Made by a program: the position numbers and the translations under genes. A DNA stretch of 64,000 bases from Chloroflexota bacterium (lineage in GTDB: Bacteria > Chloroflexota > Dehalococcoidia > UBA2979), in assembly GCA_045863195.1 (NCBI GenBank), contig BTUI01000010.1:15851-79850 (forward strand), written 5' to 3'. The notes under the pieces were generated by a model. The model had not been told where the DNA came from and ran no database searches. It worked only from the letters and a program-made list of their open reading frames with translations. Positions 1 through 17,308 of the stretch are shown here, piece after piece. How positions within the stretch are numbered: the stretch's first letter is position 1; each line of letters opens with the position of its first letter.

Positions 1-335
1 CGCTGGACCCCGAACTCGCCGAGCAGGTGATGGCGGACCTGGTGCGCGTCGCCCGCGAGGCGGGCGTCGCCACGCTGATCAACATCCACGACGTCGAACT
101 CGCGACGCAGTTCTGCGACCGGATGGTCGCGATCGCGCAGGGGACCGTGGTCTACGACGGCCCCGCCTCCGGCCTGACGGACGAGGTCCTCAACCGCACG
201 TATCGCTTCGACCGGTCGCCGAAGGTCTACGGCCGCACGGTCATGCGCGAGGCCGTCGCCGCGGCGTCCCGGCTCGACGAGGAGGCCGAGCGGCTCCTCC
301 GCGAAGTCGACCGCAAGGTGGGGAGCAACGTCTAA
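1..335 (+). CDS. phnC: Phosphonate ABC transporter ATPase, 5'-truncated by the window edge
   Basis: Reads ..LDPELAEQVMADL..LINIHDVELATQFCDRMV (D-loop tail, H-loop). TAATG overlap with phnE. Confidence 0.85.
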   Translation, partial: LDPELAEQVMADLVRVAREAGVATLINIHDVELATQFCDRMVAIAQGTVVYDGPASGLTDEVLNRTYRFDRSPKVYGRTVMREAVAAASRLDEEAERLLREVDRKVGSNV

Positions 336-1252
336 TGGCAGCATCCGGCACGACCCGCCCCGTCTCCACCACCCCCGAGGTTGATACCTCCGACCTGCTC
401 CGCATCTGGCCGAAGGTCACGGGCGGCGCGATTGGCCTCGGTGTCGCACTCATCCTCGTCTACCTGTGGGGGATCGCCGACACCAACGCGTCCCCGGGCA
501 CGCTGGTCGGCGGCCTGCCGAACATCTGGAACTTCGTGGTGCGGATGTTCCCGCCGGCGTTTGAGACGCGGCAGGAGCCGCTCATGACGCCGTACGTCGA
601 CCTCGTCGTCTTCTCGATCCCGCGCGTGGGGTTCGAGTCGATCACCTACCCGATGCCGACGATCGTCTTCGCCATCATCGAGACGGTGCAGATGGCGGTC
701 ATCGGCACCACGATCGCGATCTTCCTCTCGATCCCGTTCGCGCTGCTGGCGGCGCGCAATATCGCGCCGCACCCGCTGGTCTACCAGGCGGCGCGCATGG
801 TGCTGAACTGGAACCGCGCCATCCCGGACCTGATCTTCGCGCTCATTTTCGTCGCCGCGGTCGGCCTCGGCCCCTTCGGCGGCGTGCTCGCGCTGGGCAT
901 CGGCTCCATCGGCTTCATGGGCAAGGTGTACGCCGAGGCGATCGAGGCGATCGACCCGCAGCAGGTGAAGGCGATCCAGGCGACCGGCGCGAACCGGGTG
1001 CAGACGATCTTCTACTCCGTCTTCCCGCAGGCGATGCCGATGGTGACGTCCTACTCGCTGCTGCTGTTCGAATCGAACGTGCGATCCGCGACGATCCTCG
1101 GACTGGTCGGCGCCGGCGGCGTGGGCTTCACGATCACGAAGTACATGTCGCTCTTTCAGTACGACCGGCTGCTGGGCGCGCTCATCTTCATCATCCTGAT
1201 GGTCACCATCGTCGACCGCTTCAGCGCCTGGCTGCGCGGGAAGCTCATCTAA
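335..1252 (+). CDS. phnE: Phosphonate ABC permease
   Basis: RAIPDLIFALIFV..GLGPFGG, GKVYAEAIEAID, FESNVRSATILGLVGAGG signatures. Confidence 0.93.
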   Translation: MAASGTTRPVSTTPEVDTSDLLRIWPKVTGGAIGLGVALILVYLWGIADTNASPGTLVGGLPNIWNFVVRMFPPAFETRQEPLMTPYVDLVVFSIPRVGFESITYPMPTIVFAIIETVQMAVIGTTIAIFLSIPFALLAARNIAPHPLVYQAARMVLNWNRAIPDLIFALIFVAAVGLGPFGGVLALGIGSIGFMGKVYAEAIEAIDPQQVKAIQATGANRVQTIFYSVFPQAMPMVTSYSLLLFESNVRSATILGLVGAGGVGFTITKYMSLFQYDRLLGALIFIILMVTIVDRFSAWLRGKLI

Positions 1253-1346: not shown

Positions 1347-2450
1347 ATGAACTTGACCTGGCGCGGGCCACTGCTGGCGGTAGCCGGCGGCGCGGCTCTG
1401 ATCCTGGGCGCGGCGTGTGGGTCCGACTCGGAGACCACCACCGCGACCCCGTCCACCGGATCGCCCGCGGCGTCCGCCGCGACGGCGGCTCCGACCGAGG
1501 ACCCGAAGGCGGGCTGGCCGGAGGAGATCCGACTCGGCTTCTTCGGCGGCGACGACGCCGAGGAGGTCCTGGAGCGCGTTGAGCCGATGCGCGTGTACCT
1601 GGAGGAGACGCTGGGCCGACCGGTGACGATCTTCACCGGCACGTCCTACGGCGCGGTCATCGAGGCGATGCGCGCGAAGCGCGTCGAGGGCATGCTCGTG
1701 GGCCCGTTCGCGTACGTCCTCGCGGTGCAGGAGGCCGGCGCGGAAGCGCTCGCCGTCAGCATCTCCTGCTCCTCCAGCGAGGACCCCTGCAAGGTGGTCG
1801 AGAACCGACAGCCGCACTACTTCAGCGTCGTCATGGCGAAGAAGGGCAGCGGTATCGAGTCAATCGATGACCTCCGCGGCAAGGACTTCGCCTTCGTTGA
1901 CCCCGCGTCGACGTCCGGTCACCTGGCGCCGAAGACGCTGATCATCAAGAACGGCGTGGATCCGGACGTTGACATGAAGACGGTCTTCGCGGGCAGTCAC
2001 CCCACCGCCGTCCTCGCCCTCGAGAACGACAACGTCGTCGCGGCCGCGACGCACGAGAACAACCTGCTCAACCTGATCAAGGAAGGCCAGGTCAACGGCT
2101 GCTTCTACGCGGACGGCATCGCCAACCGTGGGACGCCGCGCACGCCGGAGGAGATCAAGCAGACGGCCGACGCCTGCGAGGACGGCAAGATCGTCATCAT
2201 CGCGCAGTCCGACCCGATCCCGAACACGCCGTTCGCGGTGCGGAGCGACCTCCCCGACACGCTGAAGCAGGCGATGAAGGACGCGCTGCTGGCGATCAAG
2301 GATGACCCGGAGGCGGTCGCCCTGGACCGTCGCTGGTTCGTCGACCCGACCGAGCAGCTCGGTCTGCAGTCCCTGGACCAGTACTACAACTCGCTCCGCG
2401 ACATCGCGAAGCTGCTTGACCTGGACCTGAAGGAACTGGCCGAGAGCTAG
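1347..2450 (+). CDS. phnD: Phosphonate ABC substrate-binding lipoprotein
   Basis: Lipobox (GAAC), YGAVIEAMR, GPFAYV, FVDPASTSGHLAP, FAGSH motifs. GGAG RBS. Confidence 0.9.
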   Translation: MNLTWRGPLLAVAGGAALILGAACGSDSETTTATPSTGSPAASAATAAPTEDPKAGWPEEIRLGFFGGDDAEEVLERVEPMRVYLEETLGRPVTIFTGTSYGAVIEAMRAKRVEGMLVGPFAYVLAVQEAGAEALAVSISCSSSEDPCKVVENRQPHYFSVVMAKKGSGIESIDDLRGKDFAFVDPASTSGHLAPKTLIIKNGVDPDVDMKTVFAGSHPTAVLALENDNVVAAATHENNLLNLIKEGQVNGCFYADGIANRGTPRTPEEIKQTADACEDGKIVIIAQSDPIPNTPFAVRSDLPDTLKQAMKDALLAIKDDPEAVALDRRWFVDPTEQLGLQSLDQYYNSLRDIAKLLDLDLKELAES

Positions 2451-2694: not shown

Positions 2695-3114
2695 ATGGAA
2701 CGTGAGGCACGCCTCCAGGCGATCGCCTGCGCCGACCCGGAAGACCTGGTCGCGCTCGCGGACGACGTGCTGGAGACGCTGGATGTTGAGGTCACCCGCG
2801 GCCCGACCGTGGGCCTGCTGATGGTGCGCGTGGAGGAGCCGCTGGAGCGGCTGCCCTTCAACTTCGCGGAGGTCACCGTCTCGGAGGCGGAGGTCGCCGT
2901 TGGCGCCCACCGCGGCTACGCGATGGTCATGGGCAAGTCGCTGGAGCGCGCCCTGGCCGGCGCCGTCGTCGACGCGGCGGTCGAGGCCGGGCACACGCTC
3001 GCCCCGCGCATCGAGGCGTTCCTCGTCGAAGCGCAGCAGGCCGCCGACCAGTCGTGGGCCGACCGCTGGGCCGTCATCGCCCCCACCCGTGTGCGATTCG
3101 AGGACGTGACATGA
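2695..3114 (+). CDS. phnG: C-P lyase subunit PhnG
   Basis: PTVGLLMVR..FNFAEVTVSEAEV..GYAMVMG..AVVDA, C-terminal TRVRF. Confidence 0.9.
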   Translation: MEREARLQAIACADPEDLVALADDVLETLDVEVTRGPTVGLLMVRVEEPLERLPFNFAEVTVSEAEVAVGAHRGYAMVMGKSLERALAGAVVDAAVEAGHTLAPRIEAFLVEAQQAADQSWADRWAVIAPTRVRFEDVT

Positions 3115-3707
3115 GCACCGTGCCACCGATCAGCGTCACCGCGGACCTGGAGCAGCGCACCTTCCGCGCGCTCCTCTCTGCGATGTCGATGCCGGGGACG
3201 ATCGAGACCGTTGAAGCCCGCCGGGCCGAGGACGGCGAGTGGGGCGCCCCGATCGCCGTCGCGCAGTCGCTCCTCGACCACGAGGTGACGTTTCACGTCG
3301 CGGCGGCGCCCGGCCCGGAGGAGACGATTCTGCGGCGCACTGGCTCGCGCACCGCGCCGCTGGAGCGCGCCGGCTACGTCTTCGCGGACGCCGAGCACGC
3401 GCTCGCGGCCGTGGAGCGCTCTGTCGAGGGGCCGCTGGAGGAGCCGGAGCGCTCCGCCACCGTCGTGATCCTCTGCGAGACGGTGGGCGAAGGCGCGCTC
3501 ACGCTCACGCTCTCCGGCCCGGGCGTGGACGGCGAGACCACGCTCCGGGTCGGTGGGCTGGACCCGCGCGTGATCCGCGCGCGGACGGAGCGCAACTGGC
3601 CGTTCCCCACCGGCATCGACCTTGTCCTTGTTGACCCGACGGGACGCCTCGCGGCGCTCCCGCGCAGCACCACGGCCACGCTGGCCGTCTCCCAGGAGGT
3701 GTCGTAA
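3111..3707 (+). CDS. phnH: C-P lyase subunit PhnH
   Basis: QRTFRALLSAMSMPG, LLDHEV, PERSATV, LSGPGV, FPTGID, ALPRST. ATGA coupling to phnG. Confidence 0.92.
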   Translation: MSTVPPISVTADLEQRTFRALLSAMSMPGTIETVEARRAEDGEWGAPIAVAQSLLDHEVTFHVAAAPGPEETILRRTGSRTAPLERAGYVFADAEHALAAVERSVEGPLEEPERSATVVILCETVGEGALTLTLSGPGVDGETTLRVGGLDPRVIRARTERNWPFPTGIDLVLVDPTGRLAALPRSTTATLAVSQEVS

Positions 3708-4789
3708 TGGGGTACTCCTCCGTCCGCGGTGGGCTCGACGCGATCGAGCACGCGGAGCGGCTGATCCAGGACCAGGTCACACAGGGTGACCACACGCTGA
3801 GCGTGGAGCAGGTCGCCGACCACCTTCAGCTGATTACCGACCAGGTGATGGGCGAAGGCGGCGTCTATGACGTGGGCCTGGGTTCGCTCGCCGTGAAGCA
3901 GGCCGAGGGCGACCCGATCGAAGCGGCGTTCCTGTTGCGCGCGTACCGCACCACGCTGCCGCGCCTCGGCTACTCGCTCGCCTCCACCGGGCGGGAATTG
4001 CGCATCACGCGCCGCATCTCCTCCGCGTTCCGGGACATCCCGGGCGGCCAGGTGCTGGGGCGGACGCGCGACTACACGCAGCGCCTGATGGACTTCGCGC
4101 TCCTCGATGGCGTCGCCCCGGAGCCGGCGCAGCCGGCCACCGGCGAGCCCGCGCCGGATGACGACGAGTTCCCGCTCGTCATCGACTTCCTGCGCGCGCA
4201 GGAGTTGATGCCGCAGGCGCCGGAGCGCCCGGACATCGAGCCGTTCGACGTGACGCGCGAGCCGCTGCGCTTCCCCGCCACGCGCTCGGCGCGCCTCCAG
4301 GGGCTCGCTCGGGCGGAGACGGGTGCGCTGCTGTCGCTCGCGTACGCCGGCATGCGGGGCTACGGCGGCGACCACGGCTACATCGCGGAACTGCGGCAGG
4401 GCGAACTGCCGGTGAAGATCTCGCACCCGGTGACCGGGCGCGCTGTGACCATCGGCTGGGTGCCGGTGACGGAGTGCTACCAGCTGGTCGGCGGGCAGGC
4501 CTCGAAGTCGAAGGAGCAGCCGGACTACACGATGGGCTACGGCATGGTGATCGGGCGCAACGAGCGCAAGGCGATCTCCATGAGCATCATCGACGCCTCC
4601 CTGAAGAAGGAGGTGAAGTCCGGCAACGTCATCGAGGATGAGGAGTACGTCCTCTACCACTGCGACGCCATCGAATCGATGGGCTTCGTGGAGCACCTCA
4701 AGCTCCCGCACTACGTGGACTTCCAGGCCTCCCTGGTGCGCACGAGCAAGGTGCGCGAACTCGTGAAGGCGGCCCGCACCAATGCCTAG
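3707..4789 (+). CDS. phnI: C-P lyase subunit PhnI
   Basis: EAAFLLRAYRTTLPR, RRISSAFRDIPGGQVLG, GFVEHLKLPHYVDFQ (Zn-binding His pair intact). Confidence 0.95.
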   Translation: MGYSSVRGGLDAIEHAERLIQDQVTQGDHTLSVEQVADHLQLITDQVMGEGGVYDVGLGSLAVKQAEGDPIEAAFLLRAYRTTLPRLGYSLASTGRELRITRRISSAFRDIPGGQVLGRTRDYTQRLMDFALLDGVAPEPAQPATGEPAPDDDEFPLVIDFLRAQELMPQAPERPDIEPFDVTREPLRFPATRSARLQGLARAETGALLSLAYAGMRGYGGDHGYIAELRQGELPVKISHPVTGRAVTIGWVPVTECYQLVGGQASKSKEQPDYTMGYGMVIGRNERKAISMSIIDASLKKEVKSGNVIEDEEYVLYHCDAIESMGFVEHLKLPHYVDFQASLVRTSKVRELVKAARTNA

Positions 4790-5678
4790 CGTCACCACAC
4801 TCCTGGAGGAGCGCGGCACCGCGTTCGCCGGCTACTCCTTCGCATTCCTCGATGACATGGCGAAGCGGGAGATCCGCCGCGCCATCCTGAAGGGTGTCGC
4901 CATCCCCGGTCACCAGGTGCCCTTCGGTTCGCGCGAGATGCCGATCGCGCGCGGCTGGGGCACGGGCGGTCTGCAGATCACGCTCGCGCTCGTCGGTGGG
5001 CGGGACGTCATCAAGGTCATCGACCAGGGCGACGACGCCTCCGTGAACGCGGTCAACCTGCGCCGGCTGATCGCGAAGACGACCGGCGCCACGGAGACCC
5101 TCGACACGGCCGAGGCGACGCTGATCCAGACGCGCCACCGCATCCCCGAAGAGGTCATGCGCGAGGGCCAGGTCCTGATCCTGCAGGTGCCGATCCCGGA
5201 GCCGCTGCGCATGGTGGAGCGCTCCGTCGCGAACGCGCGCGCGATGCACGCGGAGATGGACTACTCCCGCATGTGGCTCGCCCTGTACGAGGACATCGTG
5301 CGGCGCGGCGAGGTGAGCGCCGGCGCGGGGTACCCCGTGCTGGTGAACGGCCGCTTCGTGATGGCGCCGAGCCCGATCCCGCGCTGGGACATCCCCAAGC
5401 TGGACGACGCCCGCTGCCTCTTCCTCTTCGGCGCCGGCCGGGAGAAGCGCATCTACGCGGTGCCGCCGTTCACGAAGGTGCAGCCGCTCGAGTTCGACGA
5501 CTACCCGTTCGACACCGAGCACTTCGACGGCCTTGCCTGCGCGCTGTCCGGCGCGACCAACGCCTACATGGTGCAGTCGCCCACGGAGGACGGCGGGACG
5601 CGCTGGACCGCCTCCGACACGAACTACGCGGACAAGGTGAAGGCCGGCATGGAGGTGGACACCCAGTGGAAGCGCTAA
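4782..5678 (+). CDS. phnJ: PhnJ homologue lacking the radical-SAM Cys motif
   Basis: AIPGHQVPFGSREMP, GWGTGG, KVIDQG, IQTRHRIPE, FGAGREKRIYAVPP. C-terminus reads CALSG..TASDTNYA in place of CxxC..CSDTDYC. Confidence 0.93.
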   Translation: MPSVTTLLEERGTAFAGYSFAFLDDMAKREIRRAILKGVAIPGHQVPFGSREMPIARGWGTGGLQITLALVGGRDVIKVIDQGDDASVNAVNLRRLIAKTTGATETLDTAEATLIQTRHRIPEEVMREGQVLILQVPIPEPLRMVERSVANARAMHAEMDYSRMWLALYEDIVRRGEVSAGAGYPVLVNGRFVMAPSPIPRWDIPKLDDARCLFLFGAGREKRIYAVPPFTKVQPLEFDDYPFDTEHFDGLACALSGATNAYMVQSPTEDGGTRWTASDTNYADKVKAGMEVDTQWKR

Positions 5679-6496
5679 CCGAGACGGGCCACCGCCCGGC
5701 TGACGCCGCCGCGGACGAGCCGCTGCTCCGCGTCCGCGGGCTCACGAAGATCTACCAGTCCGCGACCGGCAGCCGCATCGTCGCCTGCGAGGACGTGTCG
5801 TTCGACCTCTACCCCGGCGAGGTGCTGGGGATCGTCGGCGAGTCCGGCTCCGGCAAGAGCACGGTGCTCCAGTGCCTTTACCAGGACGTCGCCCCCACGT
5901 CCGGCGAGGCGTACCTCGCCTCGTTCGAGGGGGGCACGCGGAACCTGTGGGAGGCCGACCGGCGTGAGCGCCGGCACATCCGCACGCACGACATGTCGAT
6001 GGTCTACCAGAACCCGCGCCAGGGGCTGAACCTGATGGTGACGGCGGGCGGAAACATCGCTGAGCGGCTGCTGGCCGCGGAGTGGCGAAAGGTCGCCGAC
6101 ATCCGCGCGAAGGCCAGCGACTACCTGAGCCGCACGGAGGTGCCGCTGGACCGGATGGACGACTTCCCGGCGTTCTTCTCGGGCGGCATGCAGCAGCGCG
6201 TCCAGATCGCGAAGGCGCTGGCGAACAACCCGGCGCTGGTGCTGCTGGACGAACTCACCACCGGCCTGGACGTCTCCGTGCAGGCGGGCGTGCTTGACCT
6301 CGTGCGGGACATCCAGCACCGCCTGGGCATGACGGCGATCGTCGTCTCGCACGACCTCGGCGTGATCCGGCTGCTCGCCGACCGCACGCTCGTCATGAAG
6401 GACGGGCATGTGGTGGAGGCCGGGCTGACCGACCAGATCCTCGAGGACCCGCAGCACCCGTACACGCAGCTGCTCGTCAACTGCGTCACCCACTAG
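5666..6496 (+). CDS. phnK: C-P lyase ABC-type ATPase PhnK
   Basis: GTG start after GGAGG (5651). GESGSGKS, TAGGNIAERL, FSGGMQQRVQIA, EAGLTDQILEDPQHPYTQLLV. Confidence 0.93.
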   Translation: MEALTETGHRPADAAADEPLLRVRGLTKIYQSATGSRIVACEDVSFDLYPGEVLGIVGESGSGKSTVLQCLYQDVAPTSGEAYLASFEGGTRNLWEADRRERRHIRTHDMSMVYQNPRQGLNLMVTAGGNIAERLLAAEWRKVADIRAKASDYLSRTEVPLDRMDDFPAFFSGGMQQRVQIAKALANNPALVLLDELTTGLDVSVQAGVLDLVRDIQHRLGMTAIVVSHDLGVIRLLADRTLVMKDGHVVEAGLTDQILEDPQHPYTQLLVNCVTH

Positions 6497-6519: not shown

Positions 6520-7287
6520 GTGACCGATCCGCTGCTCTCCGTCCGTGACATCAGCAAGCAGATCACCCTGCACATCCTGGACGGGAAGACCGTCTCGCCG
6601 TTGCGCGGCGTGTCGTTTGACCTGGACCCGGGCGAGTTCCTCGGGATCGTCGGCCCGTCCGGCGCGGGGAAGTCGTCGCTCATCAAGTGCCTGAACCGCA
6701 CCTACCTGGCGGACGGCGGCACCGCGCACTACCGCACGGCGGGTGGCGAGGTCGTCGACCTCCTCCACACGGACGAGCGGACCATGATCCGCCTCCGCCG
6801 CACGGAGATTCACTACGTCTCGCAGTTCCTGAAGGCGCCGCCGCGCGTGGCGGCGCTGGACGTGGTCGCCTCCGTGATCGTGAATCGCGGCGGCGAGCCG
6901 GCCGAGGCGCGGCGGCGTGCCGCCGAGACGCTCTCGATGCTCGGCATCGGGCCGGAGTTGCAGTCCTCGTACCCCTCGCTGTTCTCGGGCGGCGAGCAAC
7001 AGCGCGTGAACGTGGCGCGGGCGCTGGTGGACCCGCCGCGGCTGCTGCTGCTGGACGAGCCGACCTCCGCGCTGGACTCGGAGAACCGGGCGCGGGTGCT
7101 GGAGATTGTGCGCCAGGCGCAGGCGAACGGCACCGCGATGATCGGCATCTTCCACGACATCGAGATGCTCCGCGCGCTCGCCGACCACGTGATCGTCCTG
7201 GAGGACGGCCGGGTCGCGCAGTACGGCTCGATCCACGAGGTCGAGATTCCGAACTACATCGAGGCGGCCGCGGCCGAGTTCGTCTAA
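6520..7287 (+). CDS. phnL: C-P lyase ATPase PhnL
   Basis: GPSGAGKS, YVSQFL..PR, FSGGEQQRVNVAR, GIFHD. Confidence 0.93.
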   Translation: MTDPLLSVRDISKQITLHILDGKTVSPLRGVSFDLDPGEFLGIVGPSGAGKSSLIKCLNRTYLADGGTAHYRTAGGEVVDLLHTDERTMIRLRRTEIHYVSQFLKAPPRVAALDVVASVIVNRGGEPAEARRRAAETLSMLGIGPELQSSYPSLFSGGEQQRVNVARALVDPPRLLLLDEPTSALDSENRARVLEIVRQAQANGTAMIGIFHDIEMLRALADHVIVLEDGRVAQYGSIHEVEIPNYIEAAAAEFV

Positions 7288-7308: not shown

Positions 7309-8511
7309 ATGACCGTAGCCATCACCCACGCCAACATCGTCCTCGGCGACCACGTGCTGGAGGACGCGAACCTGGTGATCGAGGACGGCCGCATCGCCAC
7401 CTTCGGCCCGTGCCACGAGGTGGCCGTGCCGGACGGGGCGACGGTGCTCGATGCCGACCATGGCATGTACCTGATGCCCGGCATCATCGACACGCACAAC
7501 GACGGCCTGGAGAACGAGATCAACCCGCGTCCGCGGGCGGCGCTCCCGCCCTCGTTCGCGCTTCACAACTACGAGCGCCGCGCGCTGGCCGCCGGCGTCA
7601 CGACCTCCTTCCACGCGATCACGTTCGCGAACATGCTCCGCAGCGAGCGGACGATCGCCGACGCCGCGGCGCGCACCGAGATCATCCGCGCGGGGCGCGC
7701 CGGCGCCTCCATGGACCACCAGGTGCTGCACCGGCTGGACGTCTGGACGCCGGAGGGCGTCACGCCGCTCCTCGACTCGATGCGCCTGTGCGACGTGCAG
7801 GCGATGTCGCTGAACGACCACACCCCGGGCCAGGGCCAGTACCGCAACCTGGAGGCGTTCAAGAAGACGCTGGAGGCGTACCGCGCGGACGACCCCTCGT
7901 TCGACGCGCAGGCCGAGATCGACCGGCGCATCGCCGAGCGCCGTGACGACACCACCACGCTGACGGGCGTGTACGACCGCGTGACGCAGGCCTACGCGGA
8001 GGCGCCCTTCGTCATCGCCTCGCACGATGACGACTCGCCCGAGAAGGTGGACGTCATGCACAGCCTGGGCGCGACGGTCGCCGAGTTCCCCATCACGAAC
8101 GAGGCGGCGGCGCGGGCGCGCGAACTGGGGATGTGGATCACCGTCGGCGCGCCGAACATCGTGCGTGGCGGCTCGACCAGCGGGAACTCGGACGCGGCGG
8201 AACTGGTGGGGCTGGGTCTCGCCGACATCATCTGCGCCGACTACCACTCGCCGTCCATGCTGCTCTCGATCTTTCGCCTGGTGGACCGTGGACTCGCGAC
8301 GCTGCCGCAGGCGGTGAAGATGGTGACGGCGAACCCGGCCGCGGCCTTCGGGCTACTCGACCGAGGGCGCATCGAGGTGGGCCTCAGCGCGGACCTCGCG
8401 CTGGTGCAGCTGGTGGACGGGCACCCCGTGGTGCAGGCTGTGACCTACCGCGGCCGCCCGGTGTACGCGAACGCGAACAGCCTGCCGCGCCCGAAGGTAC
8501 TGACGGCGTGA
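7309..8511 (+). CDS. phnM: Ribose-1-methylphosphonate 5-triphosphate diphosphatase
   Basis: PGIIDTHND, DHTPGQGQYR, ASHDDD, AEFP, GAPNIVRGGS. Confidence 0.93.
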   Translation: MTVAITHANIVLGDHVLEDANLVIEDGRIATFGPCHEVAVPDGATVLDADHGMYLMPGIIDTHNDGLENEINPRPRAALPPSFALHNYERRALAAGVTTSFHAITFANMLRSERTIADAAARTEIIRAGRAGASMDHQVLHRLDVWTPEGVTPLLDSMRLCDVQAMSLNDHTPGQGQYRNLEAFKKTLEAYRADDPSFDAQAEIDRRIAERRDDTTTLTGVYDRVTQAYAEAPFVIASHDDDSPEKVDVMHSLGATVAEFPITNEAAARARELGMWITVGAPNIVRGGSTSGNSDAAELVGLGLADIICADYHSPSMLLSIFRLVDRGLATLPQAVKMVTANPAAAFGLLDRGRIEVGLSADLALVQLVDGHPVVQAVTYRGRPVYANANSLPRPKVLTA

Positions 8512-9302
8512 GGCTCACCGTCCTCGGTTCCTCCGCATCGCAGCCGGCCGCCGGCGACGCCTCCTCCGGCTACCTCGTGAGCGCCGGGGAGCAGGGCGCG
8601 CGGACGCATGTGCTGCTGGACTGCGGCAGCGGCGTGCTGGGCAACCTGCTCCAGCACGTCGCCCTACCGGAGTTGCGCGCGATCTTCGTCAGCCACATGC
8701 ACCCGGACCACTACATCGACCTCATCGCGATGCGGTACGGGCTGCGCTACGGCGAGCACGGCGCGCGCCCGGTGGACGTGTACCTGCCGCCGGGAGGCAT
8801 GCGCCAGTTGCAGGCGGTCTCCGAGGCGATCTCGAAGACACAGCCGTTCTTCACCGGCGCGCTCGACCTGCACGAGTACGTGCCGGGCGTCGCCGTCCCG
8901 GTGGGCGGGCTCTCGGTCACGCCGCAGGCCGTGGTCCACGGGATCCCCTCGCACGGCATGCGTGTGACGGACGGGCAGGCCACGCTCGCCTACTCCTCCG
9001 ACACGGTGATGTGCCCGGAGCTCGAGGTGCTGGCGAAGGACGCCGATGTGCTCCTGGCGGAGAACACGCTGGGTGGAGGCGCGCCAGACCACCACTATCC
9101 GCGCACGCACCTGTCGGCGGCGGAGGCTGGCGTCGTCGCGGGCCTGGGCGGCGTGGGGACGCTCGTCCTCACGCACTTCTGGCACACCGCGGACCGCGCT
9201 CGCGCCCAGCAGGAGGCCGCCGCCACGTTCACGGGCCGGGTGATCGTCGGGCGGCCGCACCTCCAGGTGGAGGTCGGCGCGCCGGCGGCCGTATCCCCGT
9301 AG
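8508..9302 (+). CDS. Metallo-beta-lactamase-fold hydrolase (RNase Z/PhnP-like)
   Basis: GTGA coupling to phnM. LLDCGSG, SHMHPDH, YSSDT, THL, LTHF. Confidence 0.8.
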   Translation: MRLTVLGSSASQPAAGDASSGYLVSAGEQGARTHVLLDCGSGVLGNLLQHVALPELRAIFVSHMHPDHYIDLIAMRYGLRYGEHGARPVDVYLPPGGMRQLQAVSEAISKTQPFFTGALDLHEYVPGVAVPVGGLSVTPQAVVHGIPSHGMRVTDGQATLAYSSDTVMCPELEVLAKDADVLLAENTLGGGAPDHHYPRTHLSAAEAGVVAGLGGVGTLVLTHFWHTADRARAQQEAAATFTGRVIVGRPHLQVEVGAPAAVSP

Positions 9303-9313
9303 CGCCTGCGCGC

Positions 9314-10108
9314 TCAGACGAGGTCGACGAGTACGCCGAAGTGGTCGCTCGGCAGCAGACCGTCGACCGGCGTGTCCAGCACGACCCGGGCGACGCTCGG
9401 CGTTAGCGCCGCTCGCTCGCCGGTAGCCGCCAGCAGATAGACGTAGTCGAGCCGCGCCTCGACGACCTCGTCGCCCGCGAGGTGCCGGATCGTGGCGGAA
9501 CGGGCGGGATCGCCTGCCGCCTCGAACGCATCGAGGGCGTGCCAGCCAGCCGCGCCTGAGCGCAGCATGGTGTGGACGGTGTGTCCCGCACGCGCGTTGA
9601 GGTCGCCGGCGAGCACCCGTGCCGCCGCGTCGCCGTGCCACCACGGGTCAGCGAGCACCTCCACCGCCTGCGCGACGCGGAGATCGTCGCGGTGACGCAG
9701 GTGGGTGAGGTGCGTGTTCGCGATGCGCACGAGGCCGCGGGGGCCCTCGACCGCGACGAGCAGCGCCGCGCGGTCGCCGTCATCGGGGTCGTCGGGGAGC
9801 GCTCTCGCGGTGACCTCCACGACCGGCCAGCGCGAGAGCGTCGCGAGGCCGGACCACGAGTCCACGGTGCCGCCATCGACCAGGCGCGGCTTTCGTCGCA
9901 CGGCGTGGAACGCCACGGACATGCCGAGCGCCTCCGCGAGCCGCCGGCGCGTCGACCGCGATCCGTCGGTCGCCTCCAGCACCTCCTGGGCGACGACGAT
10001 GTCCGGCTCCAGCGCGACGAGGCCGTCCGCGAGCACCTCCAGGCGCGCGGCGTAGTCGCCGTCGCCCTTGCCGGTGTTGATCGTGACGATGCGCAGGCGT
10101 TGGCTCAC
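9314..10108 (-). CDS. Endonuclease/exonuclease/phosphatase (EEP) family protein
   Basis: IVTIN, DIVVAQEV, NTHL, AGDLN, RLDYV, SDHFGV. GTGA overlap with the upstream gene. Confidence 0.85.
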   Translation of the reverse strand: MSQRLRIVTINTGKGDGDYAARLEVLADGLVALEPDIVVAQEVLEATDGSRSTRRRLAEALGMSVAFHAVRRKPRLVDGGTVDSWSGLATLSRWPVVEVTARALPDDPDDGDRAALLVAVEGPRGLVRIANTHLTHLRHRDDLRVAQAVEVLADPWWHGDAAARVLAGDLNARAGHTVHTMLRSGAAGWHALDAFEAAGDPARSATIRHLAGDEVVEARLDYVYLLAATGERAALTPSVARVVLDTPVDGLLPSDHFGVLVDLV

Positions 10109-10752
10109 GCGTACTTGCGGACGAACGCCTCGGCGTCCCCGGCAAGGTCGTCGAACCGCGCCTCGAGCGTCTCGCGGTCCCACTCCCACCAGGCGATCCG
10201 CTGCATCGCCTCGGCGATCTCTCGCGGCAGGCGTTCGCGGATCGGATGGGCCGGGACGCCGCCGACGATGGTGTACGGCGCGACGTCCTTCGAGACGACG
10301 GCGCCGGCCGCGATGACCGCGCCGTCGCCGATGGTCACGCCGGGCAGCACGATCGAGCCGTGGCCGACCCAGACGTCGTTCCCGATGACCACGCGGTCGC
10401 CCCGTCGCCACTGGAAGAAGTCGGCATCATCGGCCTCGCCGAACCCGTAGGCGACGCGGCGATACGTCATGTGGTGCTGCGTGGTGCGCCACATGGGGTG
10501 GTTGCCGGGGTTGATGCGGGTGTGCGAAGCGATCGAACAGAACTTGCCGATCTGGCTGTAGATCACGCTGCACTGGTCGACCAGGTAGGTGTAGTCACCG
10601 ATCGTCGACTCCGAGATCGTCGTCATCGCGCCGATGTCGCAGTACGGGCCGAGCGTGGAGAGGGTGACGCGCGCCTCCGGGTGGATGCGCGGCTCCGGCC
10701 CGAGGACCTTGCGAGCGGTGGTCGCGGCCGGCGGCGGCGTGTCGATGGTCAT
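10105..10752 (-). CDS. Hexapeptide-repeat acetyltransferase (phosphonate-cluster-associated, CatB-like)
   Basis: IGKFCSIA, INPGNHP, IGNDVWVGHG, GAVIAAGAVVSKDV, IAWWEW. Confidence 0.88.
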   Translation of the reverse strand: MTIDTPPPAATTARKVLGPEPRIHPEARVTLSTLGPYCDIGAMTTISESTIGDYTYLVDQCSVIYSQIGKFCSIASHTRINPGNHPMWRTTQHHMTYRRVAYGFGEADDADFFQWRRGDRVVIGNDVWVGHGSIVLPGVTIGDGAVIAAGAVVSKDVAPYTIVGGVPAHPIRERLPREIAEAMQRIAWWEWDRETLEARFDDLAGDAEAFVRKYA

Positions 10753-11190: not shown

Positions 11191-11253
11191 GCGGCGCGCT
11201 CATATTTGGGAACGGTAATGCTGGCGGGTGCCGGCAGGGGGAGGACAGGACGG

Positions 11254-11673
11254 ATGGACGTGAAGCGGCTGGTGATGCGCGGCGTGCTGGTTACCGCAGT
11301 CGCCCTCGGCGGGTTCACCGCCGTGGCGTGTGGCGGCGGTGAGGACGAGGGCGACGCGGCGGCGGCGACGACCGAGGCGGCGGTGACGGCGACGGCGGAG
11401 GAGCACGAGGATGACTCGGACGACCTCATCAAGGGCCTGGCGCCGAAGGACTTCTACAACGCGAACTGCGCGACCTGCCACGGGCCGAACCGCGAGGGCG
11501 GTGTGGGGCTGCCGCTGACGCCGCAGTCGCTGACGAACACGGACGAGTTCTACGCGGACACGATCAAGAACGGCCGGGCCGGCACGGGCATGACCATGAT
11601 GGGCACCATCCTCGGCATGTCCGACGAGGAGATCGCCACGCTCGTGGAGTTCCTGAAGACGGACCAGCCCTGA
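11254..11673 (+). CDS. Lipid-anchored monoheme c-type cytochrome
   Basis: Lipobox AVAC, acidic linker, CATCH, distal Met (GTGMTMM). First gene of the nos operon. Confidence 0.85.
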   Translation: MDVKRLVMRGVLVTAVALGGFTAVACGGGEDEGDAAAATTEAAVTATAEEHEDDSDDLIKGLAPKDFYNANCATCHGPNREGGVGLPLTPQSLTNTDEFYADTIKNGRAGTGMTMMGTILGMSDEEIATLVEFLKTDQP

Positions 11674-11776
11674 TCACGAACACCCCTCATCACACAAACG
11701 AACAGGGCCGCGGGTTTGCCTGCCCTGCGTCACAGCAGAGACACCGCGGGGCAGCGAGAGAGGCTTGGGAACGTAC

Positions 11777-13831
11777 ATGGCATTGACCAGGCGTGAGTTC
11801 ATCAGCGGCACAGCCGCGGGTGCAGCGGGCCTCGTCGTCGGAGGCGTGGTCGGAAAGGTGGTCGGCGGCGGCGGCGACGATTCGGCCGCGACCACGGGCG
11901 GGACGGTGACGAACGTCTCGTCCGACATCACCGCGATCGCGGAGGCGCGAGGCCTGGAGCCCGGGGACATCGCGAAGGCCGTCAAGACGTTCGTGCCGGG
12001 CGGCAAGCCGAACCTGGACGAGTTTTACGTGTTCTCGTCCGGCGGCCACTCCGGCCAGTTGATGGTCATGGGCGTCCCGTCCATGCGCATCCTGAAGATC
12101 ATCGGCGTGTTCACGCCGGAGTCCTGGCAGGGTTGGGGCTATGGCTCCGAGTCGGACGCGATCTTCAAGGGTGGCACCACGAGCGATGGCGGCGCGGTGT
12201 CGCCCTCGCGGCCCACGCTCACGTGGGCGGACACGCACCACCCGGCGCTGAGCGAGACGAACGGCGAGTACGACGGCCGCTGGGTGTACATCCAGGACCG
12301 CGCCAACGGCCGCATCGCCATGGTCGACCTGCGCGACTTCAAGACGAAGCAGATCTACGACGTCCCGAACCTGCAGTCCTCGCACGGTGGTTGTTTCGTG
12401 ACGCCGAACAGCGAGTACGTACACATCTCCACGAAGACGCCCACGCTCCGGCCGGGCGTTGACCCGACCACGGCGCTGGAGAACTTCGCGGATTCCTTCC
12501 GTGGCTACTCCACGTTCCTCGCGCTCAACCCGCAGACCGGCCGGTTCGACATCGACCGCTCCTTCCAGGTCGAGCTGCCGCCGTACACGCAGGACCTGGC
12601 GGACGCCGGGAAGCTTCTGAGCAACGGCTGGGTCTTCATCGGCTCGTACAACACGGAGATGGCGTACGGCGGCAATCTGGAGGGCAACCCGCCCATCGAG
12701 GTGGGCGCCTCCAAGGCCGACTTCGACTACCTCCACATGGTGAACTGGAAGAAGGCGGAGCAGGTCGTCGGTTCCCGCTCCGTGATGCAGAACGGCATCC
12801 GCGTGATCCCGCTGGATGTCGCGGTGGAGGAGGGCATCCTCTACCTGGCCCCGGAGCCGCGGAGCCCGCACGGCGCGGACGTGAGCCCCAGCGGGCGCTA
12901 CATCGTCGTCGGCGGCAAGCTAGACCCGCACGTCACCATCTACGACATCGAGATGATCGAGAAGGCGATCGCCGCGGAGGACTTCGAGTCACGCGACCAG
13001 TTCGGCGTGCCGATCCTGCGGTTCGACTCCGTGGTCTCCGGCCGCGTGGAGGTGGGCGCCGGCCCGCTGCACACGCAGTTCGACGACAAGGGCTACGGGT
13101 ACACGTCGCTGTTCCTGGAGAGCGCCGTCGCTAAGTACTCGCTCGGTGCGCCGGACTTCAGCCCGGAGGAGTCGTACAAGCTCGTCGACAAGGTGCCGGT
13201 CCACTACAACATCGGCCACCTGGTGGCGATGGAGGGCGACACGGTCAAACCGGCCGGCAAGTACGTCATCGCGCTGAACAAGTGGTCGATCGACCGGTAC
13301 GCGGGCATCGGCACGCTGAACCCGCAGAACTTCCAGCTGGTCGACCTGACCGGCGAGAAGATGGAAGTGCTGTCCGACACGCCGATCGGCATGGCGGAGC
13401 CGCACTACGTGCAGGCGATCCGTGCCGACCGCATCAAGTCCTGGGACGTCTACCCGCCGGGCACGGACCAGATCACGATGGAGCCGAGCACCCACGCCAT
13501 TGCGGCTGGCGGTGAGCGCATCGAGCGCAACGGCGACACCGTTGAGGTGTACATGAGCGTCCAGCGCTCCAACTTCAAGCCGGACATCATCCGGGTGAAG
13601 AAGGGCGAACGCATCGTGCTGCACCTCACGAACGTCGAGGTGACGCCGGACGCGACGCACGGCTTCGCGGTGCCTCGCTACAACATCAGCATGAGCATCG
13701 ACCCCGGCGAGTACGCCCGGATCGAGTTCGTCGCAGACGTTGAGGGCGCGTTCGCCATGTACTGCACCGAGTTCTGCTCCGCGCTCCACCTGGAGATGCA
13801 GGGCTGGATCATCGTCTCGCCGGAGGCGTAG
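11777..13831 (+). CDS. nosZ: Nitrous-oxide reductase, clade II-type, Tat signal
   Basis: TRREFI Tat motif. Seven CuZ His (DTHH, SHG, SPHG, PLHT, IGHL, EPHY). CuA HGF..CTEFCSALHLEM. Confidence 0.97.
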   Translation: MALTRREFISGTAAGAAGLVVGGVVGKVVGGGGDDSAATTGGTVTNVSSDITAIAEARGLEPGDIAKAVKTFVPGGKPNLDEFYVFSSGGHSGQLMVMGVPSMRILKIIGVFTPESWQGWGYGSESDAIFKGGTTSDGGAVSPSRPTLTWADTHHPALSETNGEYDGRWVYIQDRANGRIAMVDLRDFKTKQIYDVPNLQSSHGGCFVTPNSEYVHISTKTPTLRPGVDPTTALENFADSFRGYSTFLALNPQTGRFDIDRSFQVELPPYTQDLADAGKLLSNGWVFIGSYNTEMAYGGNLEGNPPIEVGASKADFDYLHMVNWKKAEQVVGSRSVMQNGIRVIPLDVAVEEGILYLAPEPRSPHGADVSPSGRYIVVGGKLDPHVTIYDIEMIEKAIAAEDFESRDQFGVPILRFDSVVSGRVEVGAGPLHTQFDDKGYGYTSLFLESAVAKYSLGAPDFSPEESYKLVDKVPVHYNIGHLVAMEGDTVKPAGKYVIALNKWSIDRYAGIGTLNPQNFQLVDLTGEKMEVLSDTPIGMAEPHYVQAIRADRIKSWDVYPPGTDQITMEPSTHAIAAGGERIERNGDTVEVYMSVQRSNFKPDIIRVKKGERIVLHLTNVEVTPDATHGFAVPRYNISMSIDPGEYARIEFVADVEGAFAMYCTEFCSALHLEMQGWIIVSPEA

Positions 13832-14373: not shown

Positions 14374-16421
14374 CCGCAGGAGTGAAGCAGGGCGAGGTGG
14401 CGCGGGCGTCCGAGACGGCCCGCCCGCGCATTGATGTGCTGTGGTTCGGGGCGTCCCTGGTGTCCGCGGTGCTGATCGTGGTGGCGGCGTTCCAGCCGCT
14501 GTGGAAGCTGACGCTGAACGCCCCCCAGTACCCGAACGGCGTGCGCCTGACGGCGTATGGATCCCGCATGGAGGGCGACCTCCAGGAGATCAACGCGCTC
14601 AACCACTACGTCGGTATTCCCAAGATCGATCCCGCGAGCATCGTCGAACTCCGCCTCTTCCCGTTCGTCATCGGCGGACTCGTGCTGCTGTTGGTGCTCG
14701 GCGCGGTCTTCGCGCGGCACCGCTGGCAGCGGGCGCTGATCGCGGTCGCCGCGTGGGGGCTGCCGCTCGGATTCCTCGCGGACCTGCAGTGGTGGCTCTA
14801 CCGCTATGGCCACGACCTGCACGAGGACGCGCCGATCCGCCTCGAGCCGTTCACGCCGAGGGTGCTCGGTGCGACTAAGATCGTGAACTTCGACAGCGAT
14901 GCGGCCGTGACCGCCGGGTTCTGGATGCTCATCGCGGCGGCGCTGCTGGTGACGGCCGCACCCTGGACGATCCGCTTCGTCCGCGACTCCTGGAACAACA
15001 CCGGTGACGCGTCCGGCCGCACCGCCTCTTCAGCCCGGGTCGCCGTGCTCGCGATTTCCCTCCTCGCGGGTGCGGCGGCCCTGTCTCCTCAGGCGGCGCA
15101 GGCGCAGGACGCCCCGCCCGCTTCGATCGCCGCCGCGATCGCTGCCGCGCCGGCCGGGGGCACCGTGGTGATCCCCGCTGGCACGTACCAAGGTGCGCTC
15201 GTCATCGACCGCCCGGTCGTCCTCGTCGGCGAGGGGCGGCCGGTCATCGACGGCGGCGGTGAGGGCGACGTGGTGCGCATCACGGCGGCGGGCGTGACGC
15301 TGCGCGGCTTCGAGGTCCGCCACTCGGCGCGCATCGTGACCGGTGAACCCGCAGGCATCCGCGTCCAGGCGGACCGCGCCACGCTGGAGGACAACCGGCT
15401 TGTGGACGTCCTCTACGGCATCGTGCTCGACGAGAGCGACGGGCACGTAGTCCGTGGCAACCACGTGAGCAGCGTCCTCGAGCTGCCGGCAGAGCGGCGC
15501 GGGCACGCGATCTACGCGTGGTACAGCGCGGGCAACCTGATCGAGGACAACACGGTCACGCTCGCGAAGGACGGCATCTTTCTCGGCTTCGCCACGGACA
15601 CCGTGGTGCAGCGGAACCGGGTGACCGACCTCCGCTACGGCCTCCACACGATGTACGCATACGGCCTGGTGCTGCGCGACAACTCGTTTACGGACAACGT
15701 GGCGGGCGCGAGCCTCATGTACTCGCGGGACGTCCTCGTGGAGGGCAACGAGTTCTCCGGCAACCGGTCGCCGGCCTCCGGCTACGGGATCCTGTTCAAG
15801 GACATGGACGACGTGTCCATCATCAACAACCGCATCCACCACAATCGCCTCGGCCTCACCGTGGACGGGGCCCCCGCGACCCCCGGCGCGTTCGTGACGC
15901 TGGAGCGGAACCTGATCGCGTTCAACACGATCGCCCTCCAGCTCTTCACCACCACCGACATGACCTTCGTCGAGAACTCCTTCATCGGAAACGTGCAGCA
16001 GGTGGAGAGCCTGGGCGGCAGCCTGGAGACGCACAACCGCTGGTCGCTGGACGGCCGCGGCAACTACTGGGACGACTACGAGGGGTACGACGCGAACGGC
16101 GACGGCGTGGGCGACCTGCCGTACCGCTACGAGGGCGTGTTCGATGACCTGACGAGCCGCAGCGAGGCCGTGCGCGCGTACGCCTTCACGCCAGCGCGTG
16201 GCGCGCTGGATCTGGCGGCGCGCTGGTTCCCGATCTACCGCCCGACCCCGCGCGTGGTGGACGAGGCGCCCCTGATGACGCCGGTCGTCCGCTTCGCGGG
16301 GGCGCAGCCGGTGGGCCCGTCCGCCGGCGCTGCCGTGGCCAGCCTGGCGCTCATCACCATCGCGGTCGCCGTGTTCGGCTCCGGCGTCTGGACGGTGCGG
16401 GCAAGGTGGCGGACATGCTGA
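14370..16421 (+). CDS. nosD: NosB-like membrane domain fused to NosD beta-helix
   Basis: N-terminal APQYP..EINALNHYVG..YGHDL..API (NosB-like), then RGHAIY, DLRYGLHTMY, GNYWDDY.GYDANGDGVGD (NosD). GTGA coupling to nosL. Confidence 0.88.
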   Translation: MTAGVKQGEVARASETARPRIDVLWFGASLVSAVLIVVAAFQPLWKLTLNAPQYPNGVRLTAYGSRMEGDLQEINALNHYVGIPKIDPASIVELRLFPFVIGGLVLLLVLGAVFARHRWQRALIAVAAWGLPLGFLADLQWWLYRYGHDLHEDAPIRLEPFTPRVLGATKIVNFDSDAAVTAGFWMLIAAALLVTAAPWTIRFVRDSWNNTGDASGRTASSARVAVLAISLLAGAAALSPQAAQAQDAPPASIAAAIAAAPAGGTVVIPAGTYQGALVIDRPVVLVGEGRPVIDGGGEGDVVRITAAGVTLRGFEVRHSARIVTGEPAGIRVQADRATLEDNRLVDVLYGIVLDESDGHVVRGNHVSSVLELPAERRGHAIYAWYSAGNLIEDNTVTLAKDGIFLGFATDTVVQRNRVTDLRYGLHTMYAYGLVLRDNSFTDNVAGASLMYSRDVLVEGNEFSGNRSPASGYGILFKDMDDVSIINNRIHHNRLGLTVDGAPATPGAFVTLERNLIAFNTIALQLFTTTDMTFVENSFIGNVQQVESLGGSLETHNRWSLDGRGNYWDDYEGYDANGDGVGDLPYRYEGVFDDLTSRSEAVRAYAFTPARGALDLAARWFPIYRPTPRVVDEAPLMTPVVRFAGAQPVGPSAGAAVASLALITIAVAVFGSGVWTVRARWRTC

Positions 16422-17308
16422 GCGTCCAGGGCCTCTGCAAGCGCTACGGCTCGACGTCGGTGCTGGACGGCGTCTCCTTCGACCTGGACGCCGGGCGGGT
16501 GCTGGCGATCGTCGGGGCGAACGGTGCCGGCAAGTCCACGCTCCTCAAGAGCATCCTGGGCCTTGTCCGCTTCGACGGGACGGTTCGCCTCGATGGCATC
16601 GACGTCGCGCGTGACGGCCGCAAGGCGCGCCGGCGGATCGGCTACCTGCCGCAGCACCCGGCGTTCCACGGCGACCTGACGGTGCTGGAGACGGTCGCGT
16701 TCTACGCGCGCCTCCGCGGGGTCCCCGCGGCGCAGGCGCCGGCGGCGGTGGAGGCCGTGGGCCTCGTACCGCACGCCGACAAGGAGGTCGACGCGCTCTC
16801 CGGTGGCATGAAGCAGCGGCTCGCGCTGGCGGTCGCGCAACTGGGCGACCCGCCGCTCCTCGTCCTGGACGAGCCGACGGCGGGCCTGGACGTGGCCGCG
16901 CGGCTGGAACTGCGGCGGTTCGTGCAGCAAGAGCAGGAGCGCGGCCGCACGGTGATCCTTTCCACCCACTGGATGGAGGACATCCCGGCGATGGCGGACT
17001 TGGTCCTCGCGTTGGAGGATGGCCACGTGGCCTACTTCGGTGAGGCCGCTGCGTTCGCCGCCGCGTCCGCGCCGCAGAGCCGGATGTTCCTGCGGCTCAA
17101 CGGCCGCACGGAGGAGGCGCTCCCGCTCATCACCTCGCTCACCGGCAACGCCGCGCACGAGGGCGAGTGGGTGGCGGTCACCTGCCTCGCTGCGAGCAAG
17201 GCACAGGTGCTGGCCGCGCTCTTCGGCGCGGGCATCAAGGTGCTGGACTTCCGGGTGGAGGACGCGCCGGGCGTGCTGGCCTCGGCCGGGCGGGGAGGTG
17301 ACTCGTGA
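16406..17308 (+). CDS. nosF: ABC ATPase NosF
   Basis: GANGAGKS, IGYLPQ, LSGGMKQRL, LDEPT. Lies between nosD and nosY; start may be 16415. Confidence 0.88.
   Translation: MADMLSVQGLCKRYGSTSVLDGVSFDLDAGRVLAIVGANGAGKSTLLKSILGLVRFDGTVRLDGIDVARDGRKARRRIGYLPQHPAFHGDLTVLETVAFYARLRGVPAAQAPAAVEAVGLVPHADKEVDALSGGMKQRLALAVAQLGDPPLLVLDEPTAGLDVAARLELRRFVQQEQERGRTVILSTHWMEDIPAMADLVLALEDGHVAYFGEAAAFAAASAPQSRMFLRLNGRTEEALPLITSLTGNAAHEGEWVAVTCLAASKAQVLAALFGAGIKVLDFRVEDAPGVLASAGRGGDS

Follow-up and report, generated by a model that had tools for sequence, protein, structure and literature searches.

A selectively constrained PhnJ lacking three of the four metal-site cysteines in a Dehalococcoidia lineage

The phn cluster and its PhnJ protein

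Carbon-phosphorus (C-P) lyase provides bacteria with their main broad-range route to phosphorus from phosphonates, glyphosate included, and is a source of methane in oxic waters. Here we describe a C-P lyase gene cluster from a Dehalococcoidia bacterium (phylum Chloroflexota) whose PhnJ protein lacks three of the four cysteines on which the accepted view of the enzyme depends. The cluster lies in a stretch of 64,000 nucleotides, referred to as the window (WIN), whose first base is position C10:15851 of genome G000, a metagenome-assembled genome (MAG) of 2.9 Mb that is 95% complete. Labels of the form L### denote genome loci and those of the form P#### metagenome protein clusters; papers are cited by their PubMed Central (PMC) identifiers.

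The mechanism of C-P lyase is unsettled: the model joins a [4Fe-4S]/S-adenosylmethionine (SAM) site, Gly32 and Cys272 of PhnJ (Escherichia coli numbering), whilst in structures of the E. coli complex distances of about 30 Å separate the Cys site, Gly32 and the Zn pocket that binds the product (PMC9947105). The four Cys of E. coli PhnJ bind a single Zn in the structures (PMC11978286, PMC9947105), and Cys272 is the proposed thiyl-radical residue (PMC11978286). The product, 5-phosphoribosyl 1,2-cyclic phosphate (PRcP), has been modelled at the Zn site between PhnI and PhnJ, where it contacts PhnJ His108 and a pair of PhnI His residues (PMC9947105).

In the window, phnJ sits between phnI and phnK within an intact phnC-E-D-GHIJKLM cluster with accessory genes (Table 1), and the gene order from phnE to the hexapeptide-repeat transferase is that of a four-Cys sister clade. 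The frames of phnG, phnH, phnI, phnK, phnL and phnM are all open and each is matched by an NCBIfam or Pfam family, in keeping with an earlier sequence-only reading of this DNA that had described them as unbroken; PhnK, PhnL and PhnM fall in the right families but score under the strictest equivalog cut-offs.

The 298-residue PhnJ protein has exactly two Cys, C212 and C253. It matches E. coli PhnJ (PDB chains 7z15_D and 4xb6_D) in phmmer with an E value of 1e-96, and the two proteins share 53% identity, the same family and the same phnGHIKLM partners. Counted by hand from the phmmer alignment, E. coli C241, C244, C266 and C272 correspond to C253, S256, A277 and A283, a pattern abbreviated here as C-S-A-A. 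Thus, three of the four Zn-binding Cys seen in the E. coli structures (4XB6, 7Z15-7Z19) are Ser, Ala and Ala in the window protein: one Cys is left of the C241/C244/C266 ligand set and the Cys272 position is also changed, and there can therefore be no [4Fe-4S] cluster on the equivalents of C241, C244 and C266, and no equivalent of Cys272. Translation and alignment bear out in full the residues, codon positions and two-Cys total given by the sequence-only reading. Other residues assigned to the active complex are kept: E. coli Gly32 is G43 (motif AIPGHQVPFG) and His108 is H119, both identified as residues in the phmmer alignment, and the C-terminal SDT.Y context is conserved. In PhnI, His330 and His335 align (to 7z15_C) with His328 and His333 of the E. 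coli Zn 'His site', and the pair is found in 4/4, 15/15 and 64/64 loci of three groups, the 15 loci being those of a large Cys-poor lineage described below. Together with PhnJ His119, the putative active-site residues of the complex are all retained.

An AlphaFold2 (AF2) model of the window PhnJ has a mean pLDDT (predicted local distance difference test score) of 85.4, rising to 91-96 in the C-terminal domain, and superimposes on 7z18_D with TM-scores of 0.85/0.91 and a root-mean-square deviation of 2.6 Å over 276 columns, the central insertion and the C-terminal domain being present in the model. The underlying alignment held four-Cys homologues and metals were ignored, so these figures speak for fold compatibility only and are silent on metal dependence. 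PhnH, a structural paralogue, shares the core fold (TM-scores of 0.43-0.45 by query and 0.64-0.75 by target, to 4xb6_B and 2fsu). Neither the central insertion nor the C-terminal domain with the Cys is present in PhnH (PMC9947105), whereas the window PhnJ keeps both and only the Cys have gone.

Table 1. Genes of the phn cluster and selected PhnJ codons, in window coordinates
Feature	Position	Strand	Basis
phnC-like ATP-binding cassette (ABC) ATPase, 3' part (gene cut by window start)	1..335	+	Open reading frame L116:9230-10186 = G000:C10:15229-16185; PF00005 ABC_tran
phnE-like ABC permease	335..1252	+	PF00528; synteny in relatives
phnD, phosphonate/phosphite ABC substrate-binding protein	1347..2450	+	TIGR01098, 209 bits; TIGR03431 PhnD, 196 bits (below cut-off of 261)
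phnG	2695..3114	+	TIGR03293, 93.2 bits, above cut-off
phnH (real start probably downstream of 3054)	3054..3707	+	TIGR03292, 140.5 bits, residues 34-206; PF05845
phnI	3707..4789	+	PF05861, 422 bits; aligned to 7z15_C
phnJ, 298 residues, Cys-poor (C-S-A-A)	4782..5678	+	PF06007, 416.7 bits (cut-off 25), residues 17-287, profile positions 2-273 of 275
PhnJ Gly43 = E. coli Gly32 (glycyl-radical site), retained	GGT 4908..4910	+	Identity of at least 97% across 321 PhnJ sequences
PhnJ Cys253 = E. coli Cys241, sole cluster Cys left	TGC 5538..5540	+	Alignment
PhnJ Ser256, replaces E. coli Cys244	TCC 5547..5549	+	Alignment; AGC in L011
PhnJ Ala277, replaces E. coli Cys266	GCC 5610..5612	+	Alignment
PhnJ Ala283, replaces E. 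coli Cys272 (proposed thiyl-radical residue)	GCG 5628..5630	+	Alignment
phnK, ABC ATPase (start codon not fixed)	5675..6496	+	TIGR02323, 254 bits: best family, below cut-off of 303
phnL, ABC ATPase	6520..7287	+	TIGR02324, 232 bits: best family, below cut-off of 256
phnM, ribosyl-phosphonate triphosphate diphosphatase	7309..8511	+	NF011990, 336.7 bits, above cut-off; TIGR02318, 342 bits
Metallo-beta-lactamase-fold phosphodiesterase, likely for a PhnP-type step	8541..9302	+	PF12706; NF041851-like, 153 bits; weak TIGR03307 PhnP match; syntenic
Endonuclease/exonuclease/phosphatase (EEP)-family gene (real start probably ~10100)	9314..10411	-	PF03372, residues 110-357; syntenic
Hexapeptide-repeat transferase typical of phosphonate clusters	10105..10752	-	TIGR03308, 284.5 bits, above cut-off

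Conservation of the Cys loss and selection on phnJ

The C-S-A-A pattern recurs in four further species-level Dehalococcoidia MAGs from different projects: L008, L009 and L010, which represent other species of the same genus and have PhnJ proteins 92-93% identical to that of the window, and the more distant L011 (81%). The six nearest metagenome protein clusters (P0002-P0007) are likewise C-S-A-A. Sequence data from other sources, compared as contigs, agree with the window: a contig of 786 bases, assembled from an independent run on activated sludge (X6), covers 5426-5678 with 0 differences, and sludge metagenome contigs from another study (X3) cover 4933-5556 and 5612-5678, also with 0 differences, leaving 5562-5591 uncovered. 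Because the change from TGC to GCC or GCG takes 2-3 nucleotide substitutions and independent assemblies agree, sequencing error, which the earlier reading had called unlikely, is excluded. Contigs from two metatranscriptome libraries are identical to the phnJ sequence over 4942-5208 and 5065-5272; DNA carry-over is possible and neither level nor strand can be read from them, so that they give a weak hint only of phnJ expression.

The four-Cys sister Dehalococcoidia (L012-L015, P0008-P0014) have TGC or TGT at all four sites. They resemble the Cys-poor clade in gene order, in PhnJ sequence (76-79% identity) and in the ratio of nonsynonymous to synonymous substitution rates (dN/dS), and differ from it in keeping the four Cys. 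By the Nei-Gojobori method, and ignoring the values for L010 'phnL' (a paralogous match at a contig end), whole-gene dN/dS for phnJ is 0.02-0.34 in the Cys-poor clade versus 0.03-0.20 in the sister; for residues 247-298, the C-terminal domain that once carried the Cys, it is 0.07-0.48 versus 0.03-0.34. The slight excess is not specific to phnJ, because the whole cluster runs slightly higher in the Cys-poor clade; WIN-L011 gives a dN(phnJ)/dN(phnI) ratio of about 0.69, compared with 0.86 for L012-L013. All other phn genes in the clade are constrained, and dN/dS for the metallo-beta-lactamase-fold gene is 0.08-0.46. The phnJ frame is open in 5/5 clade genomes, between which dS reaches 0.43-0.63. 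The Cys-poor clade with dN/dS well below 1 that the earlier reading had proposed to look for thus exists, and it is supported by the trees described below.

To what extent has the rest of the protein changed? In an alignment of 321 PhnJ sequences, a column was taken as canonical when its conservation across 172 four-Cys proteins was 85% or more; the grouping excluded four rows whose patterns were different. The consensus of the window clade departs from these columns at 256, 277 and 283 only, which confirms that Gly43 and the other motifs are kept. Across all 321 sequences, 76 columns are at least 97% identical, those of G43 and H119 among them. Ser256 is encoded by TCC in four of the clade genomes and by AGC in L011. 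A single change separates either codon from TGC, but the two are at least two changes apart, which suggests that Ser256 arose on two occasions, once the site was no longer functional.

Other features of the cluster and its surroundings were noted. PhnD of the window is 61% identical to that of L008, compared with 82% for PhnE and 90-93% for PhnG, PhnI, PhnJ and PhnK, and dN/dS for phnD is 0.26-0.61, suggesting that the binding protein has diversified or been replaced. PhnM has 3-4 Cys in the Cys-poor clade against seven in the four-Cys sister, and the EEP-family protein 0-3 against 5-6, a hint of lineage-wide thinning of Cys across this cluster. Just downstream of the phn cluster lie a c-type cytochrome gene (11206-11673) and a nosZ-like nitrous-oxide reductase gene with nos_propeller and cupredoxin/CuA domains (11765-13831). 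Upstream of phnC (L116, G000:C10:6000-16500) are genes for a sulphur-transport protein (PF04143), a double rhodanese and an AhpC/TSA-type peroxiredoxin.

Cys-poor PhnJ proteins in other bacteria

Loss of three or more of the Cys is not confined to the window clade. Among the 80 genome loci that the query retrieved, at least three Cys are missing from 15, of which four are members of this clade and 11 fall in a separate lineage represented by MAGs of Anaerolineae, Thermoflexales, Dehalococcoidales, Trueperaceae and Deinococcales. A search of representatives clustered at 50% identity was uninformative, as the strong conservation of PhnJ leaves few clusters and the rows listed are mostly fragments. 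A search seeded with a Deinococcales protein showed the separate lineage to be large: among the matches listed, 120/120 lack at least three of the Cys, with Meiothermus, Thermaceae, Deinococcus, Oscillochloris and Burkholderiales among the sources, and no Cys at all is present in 42 of 123 aligned sequences (the 120 relatives and three Cys-bearing comparison PhnJ). In an even sample of 401 Chloroflexota genomes, PhnJ was found in 28, and at least three Cys are missing in eight of these, G000 included.

The large lineage resembles the window clade in lacking Cys at the same three positions, in often retaining it at the first and in having complete phn clusters. At position 253, 77/131 sequences have Cys and 49/131 have Asp; Thr or Ser occupies 256 and Leu, Val or Ile occupies 277, whilst 283 varies. 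The lineage keeps 93 of the 117 canonically conserved columns, including Gly43, which is invariant in all Cys-poor sequences, and His119. It differs from the window clade in its 20 further changes at canonically conserved columns, among them fixed markers such as F48Y, G49A and G217S (Phe48 is Tyr in 131/131), in an identity of only ~55-62% to the window protein and in its long separate branch. Many members (amongst P0272-P0391) carry a conserved Tyr-rich C-terminal extension, G-x-T-Y-Y/F-D-D-x-G-x-F-Y-x-x-G-Y/F-L, absent from canonical PhnJ and from the window clade. The clusters of the large lineage keep phnF, phnG-M, phnN and DUF1045 or a metallophosphoesterase gene. When the stop-to-stop frames lying up to 7 kb from phnJ in the 80 loci, 5,543 in total, were clustered, the families specific to this lineage were a divergent PhnG, an antisense phnI frame and the metallophosphoesterase. 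Neither the divergent PhnG nor the metallophosphoesterase, which occurs in some clusters, is found in the window clade.

Besides Meiothermus and Oscillochloris, the lineage includes plasmid-borne phnJ genes of cultured organisms, namely Thermus thermophilus HB8, Mesorhizobium sp. AR07, Sinorhizobium sp. B11 and Haematobacter massiliensis (pOT1-5), all four in complete clusters, that of Mesorhizobium with phnF, phnN and DUF1045. These are the four plasmid records checked out of 16 in the 60-80% identity band; three checked below 58% identity have four Cys. Plasmid pVV8 of T. thermophilus HB8 (WP_014677597.1; L117, NC_017767.1 19025-29333) carries phnC-D-E-G-H-I-J-K-L-M in full, with a single-Cys PhnJ of pattern C-T-V-M; next come the gene of a hexapeptide transferase, in truncated form, and that of a TIGR00282 metallophosphoesterase; one T. 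thermophilus control genome that was searched has no PF06007 match. The Haematobacter plasmid (NZ_CP035515.1; L124, L128) has two phnHIJKL sets ~19 kb apart, one four-Cys and one Cys-poor (C-S-L-G), the latter flanked by integrase, toxin-antitoxin and IS66 genes, an arrangement that favours two systems over mixed complexes.

Further variants exist. Two or three Cys are missing from a small third group (P0018, P0043, P0074; pattern C-x-x-R) and from the singleton P0069. A small clade of Chloroflexota PhnJ proteins has three Cys only: L028/L106, P0085 and P0096 are missing the second Cys and have a His-bearing insert at that point (C-S-H/Y-G-H-Q...), whilst L026/L101 and P0089 have C-A-C-G in place of C-x-x-C; the three-Cys proteins may represent variant ligand sets of the metal site. 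One Chloroflexota contig carries two four-Cys phnJ genes 11 kb apart (L088/L089, G412:C49:3805-4620 and 15771-16592).

How are the Cys-poor groups related? In a FastTree phylogeny of 201 rows, the window clade forms a group of 11 rows (support 99*) inside a 22-row starred set with 11 four-Cys rows, and the large lineage forms one long branch (100*). A quick IQ-TREE analysis of 85 rows with the four sites masked (all 11 from the clade, 19 large-lineage rows, 3 + 1 others and, hand-picked to span the FastTree, 51 rows with four Cys) recovered three Cys-poor groups at 97* (the window clade), 100* and 99*, with four state changes in total. The window clade keeps F48, G49 and G217 where the large lineage has its marker residues Y48/A49/S217, and it groups with the four-Cys Dehalococcoidia. 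Our best estimate, made from these sequences, is that the window clade and the large lineage lost their Cys separately.

A proposed PhnJ step without the Cys site

What does a PhnJ of this kind do? The reading we favour, at a probability of about 0.5, is that the window encodes a working, selectively maintained Dehalococcoidia PhnJ that has dispensed with its C-terminal four-Cys metal site. Of the proposals made in the sequence-only reading, a C-P lyase variant not using its own radical-SAM chemistry is the one that survives, the cluster being intact, the loss conserved and dN/dS low. On this interpretation, the complex would still perform the PhnJ step, converting a 5-phosphoribosyl-1-phosphonate-type intermediate to the 1,2-cyclic phosphate, since the upstream phnI, phnG, phnH and phnL, together with phnM and the downstream phosphodiesterase-type gene, all stay under selection. 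As to where cleavage would take place, our tentative guess is the conserved His/metal pocket between PhnI and PhnJ, by chemistry that would require no cluster on PhnJ and no thiyl radical. The substrates may be a narrower or different set of P-X compounds, and residue 253, which is Cys here and either Cys or Asp among the large lineage, may itself play a part. That members of that lineage can be wholly free of Cys implies that PhnJ can function independently of thiols.

A broader version of this interpretation, which we regard as possible but tentative, is that the four-Cys radical-SAM module is an accessory one, discarded repeatedly (in this clade, in the C-x-x-R group and in the multi-phylum lineage). 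Gly32, PhnJ His108 and the PhnI His pair are invariant throughout, so that C-P cleavage would on this account occur at the PhnI-PhnJ pocket, independent of cluster and thiol and probably insensitive to oxygen. An analogy can be found in the zinc-ribbon ribosomal proteins, of which Makarova, Ponomarev and Koonin reportedly described in 2001 C+ and C- forms, the four-Cys metal site having been lost repeatedly whilst the protein remained functional. It is an analogy only: the metal there is purely structural, whereas the PhnJ site is assigned a catalytic role, and the proteins are unrelated in sequence.

Several points weigh against a working enzyme of separate origin. To break an unactivated C-P bond without a radical is chemically difficult. 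In E. coli, Kamat and colleagues are said to have found in 2011 and 2013 that the cluster, SAM, Gly32 and Cys272 are all necessary. The same mechanism is restated elsewhere (PMC11978286, PMC9947105), and the literature searched yielded no report of activity for any Cys-poor PhnJ. Every genome of the clade is a MAG, and dN/dS lies slightly above that of the sister throughout the clade's cluster. No newly conserved residue able to carry new chemistry is seen in the clade; the change of three Cys alone fits the loss of one activity with the rest kept at least as well as it fits new chemistry, and since it suits rival explanations at least equally, our confidence is just modest. As to separate origin, forcing the window clade and the large lineage together lowers the log-likelihood by 15.4, which the approximately unbiased (AU) test does not reject (p 0.19). 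Because a single origin is not rejected, the description of the loss as recurrent rests on the best tree, the identities, the cluster architecture and the absence of the marker substitutions.

The strongest rival is that PhnJ has become a catalytically dead scaffold on which PhnK docks and which makes the PhnI pocket complete; selection would then act on a function of the cluster other than breaking unactivated C-P bonds, for example PhnI/PhnM-type ribosyl chemistry or transport. The changes seen, three Cys and no gain, are what this would predict, and as PhnJ docks PhnK and forms part of the His-site pocket (PMC9947105), most of the protein would stay selected. We nevertheless consider it unlikely, for the reactions of PhnI and PhnM free no phosphorus from phosphonate if the PhnJ step is missing (PMC9947105), and yet the downstream phosphodiesterase-type gene is under selection. 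The former Cys-bearing domain is also constrained and confidently modelled, Gly43 never varies among Cys-poor proteins, and phnN is kept in the Cys-poor clusters of other phyla.

Could the radical chemistry instead have been retained in another form? The sequence-only reading had raised a structural PhnJ paired with a second copy, and other ligands for the cluster, and neither idea gained support. A single PF06007 match is present in G000 and one PhnJ match in each of G002, G003 and G007, so no second phnJ was found in these MAGs, which are 82-95% complete. No Cys triad has been gained in PhnG-M, the metallo-beta-lactamase-fold protein, the EEP protein or the transferase when five Cys-poor loci are compared with six four-Cys loci; clade-specific Cys occur as single positions only (PhnH 141, and PhnI 319 in 4/5).

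A further possibility, in line with the radical supply in trans that the sequence-only reading had listed, is a division of labour, in which a separate radical-SAM activase acts on Gly43 and Cys253 takes over as the thiyl residue. Activation of this form has precedent in pyruvate formate-lyase and class III ribonucleotide reductase. Few substitutions would be needed, no other conserved position has changed and both Gly43 and Cys253 are kept in 15/15 members seen; the genome has 15 radical-SAM domains, all outside the cluster, and SAM is reportedly (Kamat 2013) spent only on installing the radical and not at each turnover. Residues 253 and 283 should moreover be neighbours, the four Cys of the E. 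coli protein sharing one Zn. Set against this, G000 has no radical-SAM gene in or beside the cluster, the nearest being ~74 kb away, and the 80-locus comparison shows no gene family specific to the four loci of the window clade. Gly32 is also buried in the E. coli complex (PMC9947105). The explanation cannot hold for the large lineage, with its Asp253 and Cys-free members, and for the window clade we think it rather improbable, a little more so than the scaffold.

An incipient pseudogene, in which function has been lost recently and the gene is drifting, is very unlikely: three residues called essential in E. coli are indeed missing and dN/dS is slightly raised, but the frame is intact in every clade genome at dN/dS of no more than 0.34 despite the dS reached, L008-L011 share the loss with no phnJ-specific relaxation, no further conserved residue has gone and the neighbouring phn genes are all intact and constrained. 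An artefact of assembly, binning or sequencing, to which a MAG of 30 contigs with 3.5% contamination might seem open, is refuted for practical purposes by the same pattern in the MAGs of four other species from different projects and by independent contigs with 0 differences.

Cys-poor PhnJ sequences are already public, annotated as ordinary PhnJ, and we found no description of them in the literature searched, which covered subscription journals thinly. In the parts of three papers available, the four Cys are treated as conserved and used as a check of function (PMC11978286, PMC12413358, PMC9947105). phnJ is widely used as a marker of methane formation from methylphosphonate, and some studies check for the four Cys (PMC11978286); in our samples such a check would fail 8/28 PhnJ-bearing Chloroflexota genomes and 15/80 genome loci. 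That the loss is widespread beyond the window clade changes the weight of the finding. With a Cys-poor phnJ conserved and under selection here and in many bacteria, the textbook mechanism cannot be the whole story, and PhnJ proteins that naturally lack the Cys site within complete clusters, one of them in the tractable thermostable model T. thermophilus HB8, offer a ready-made experiment on the mechanism of C-P lyase.

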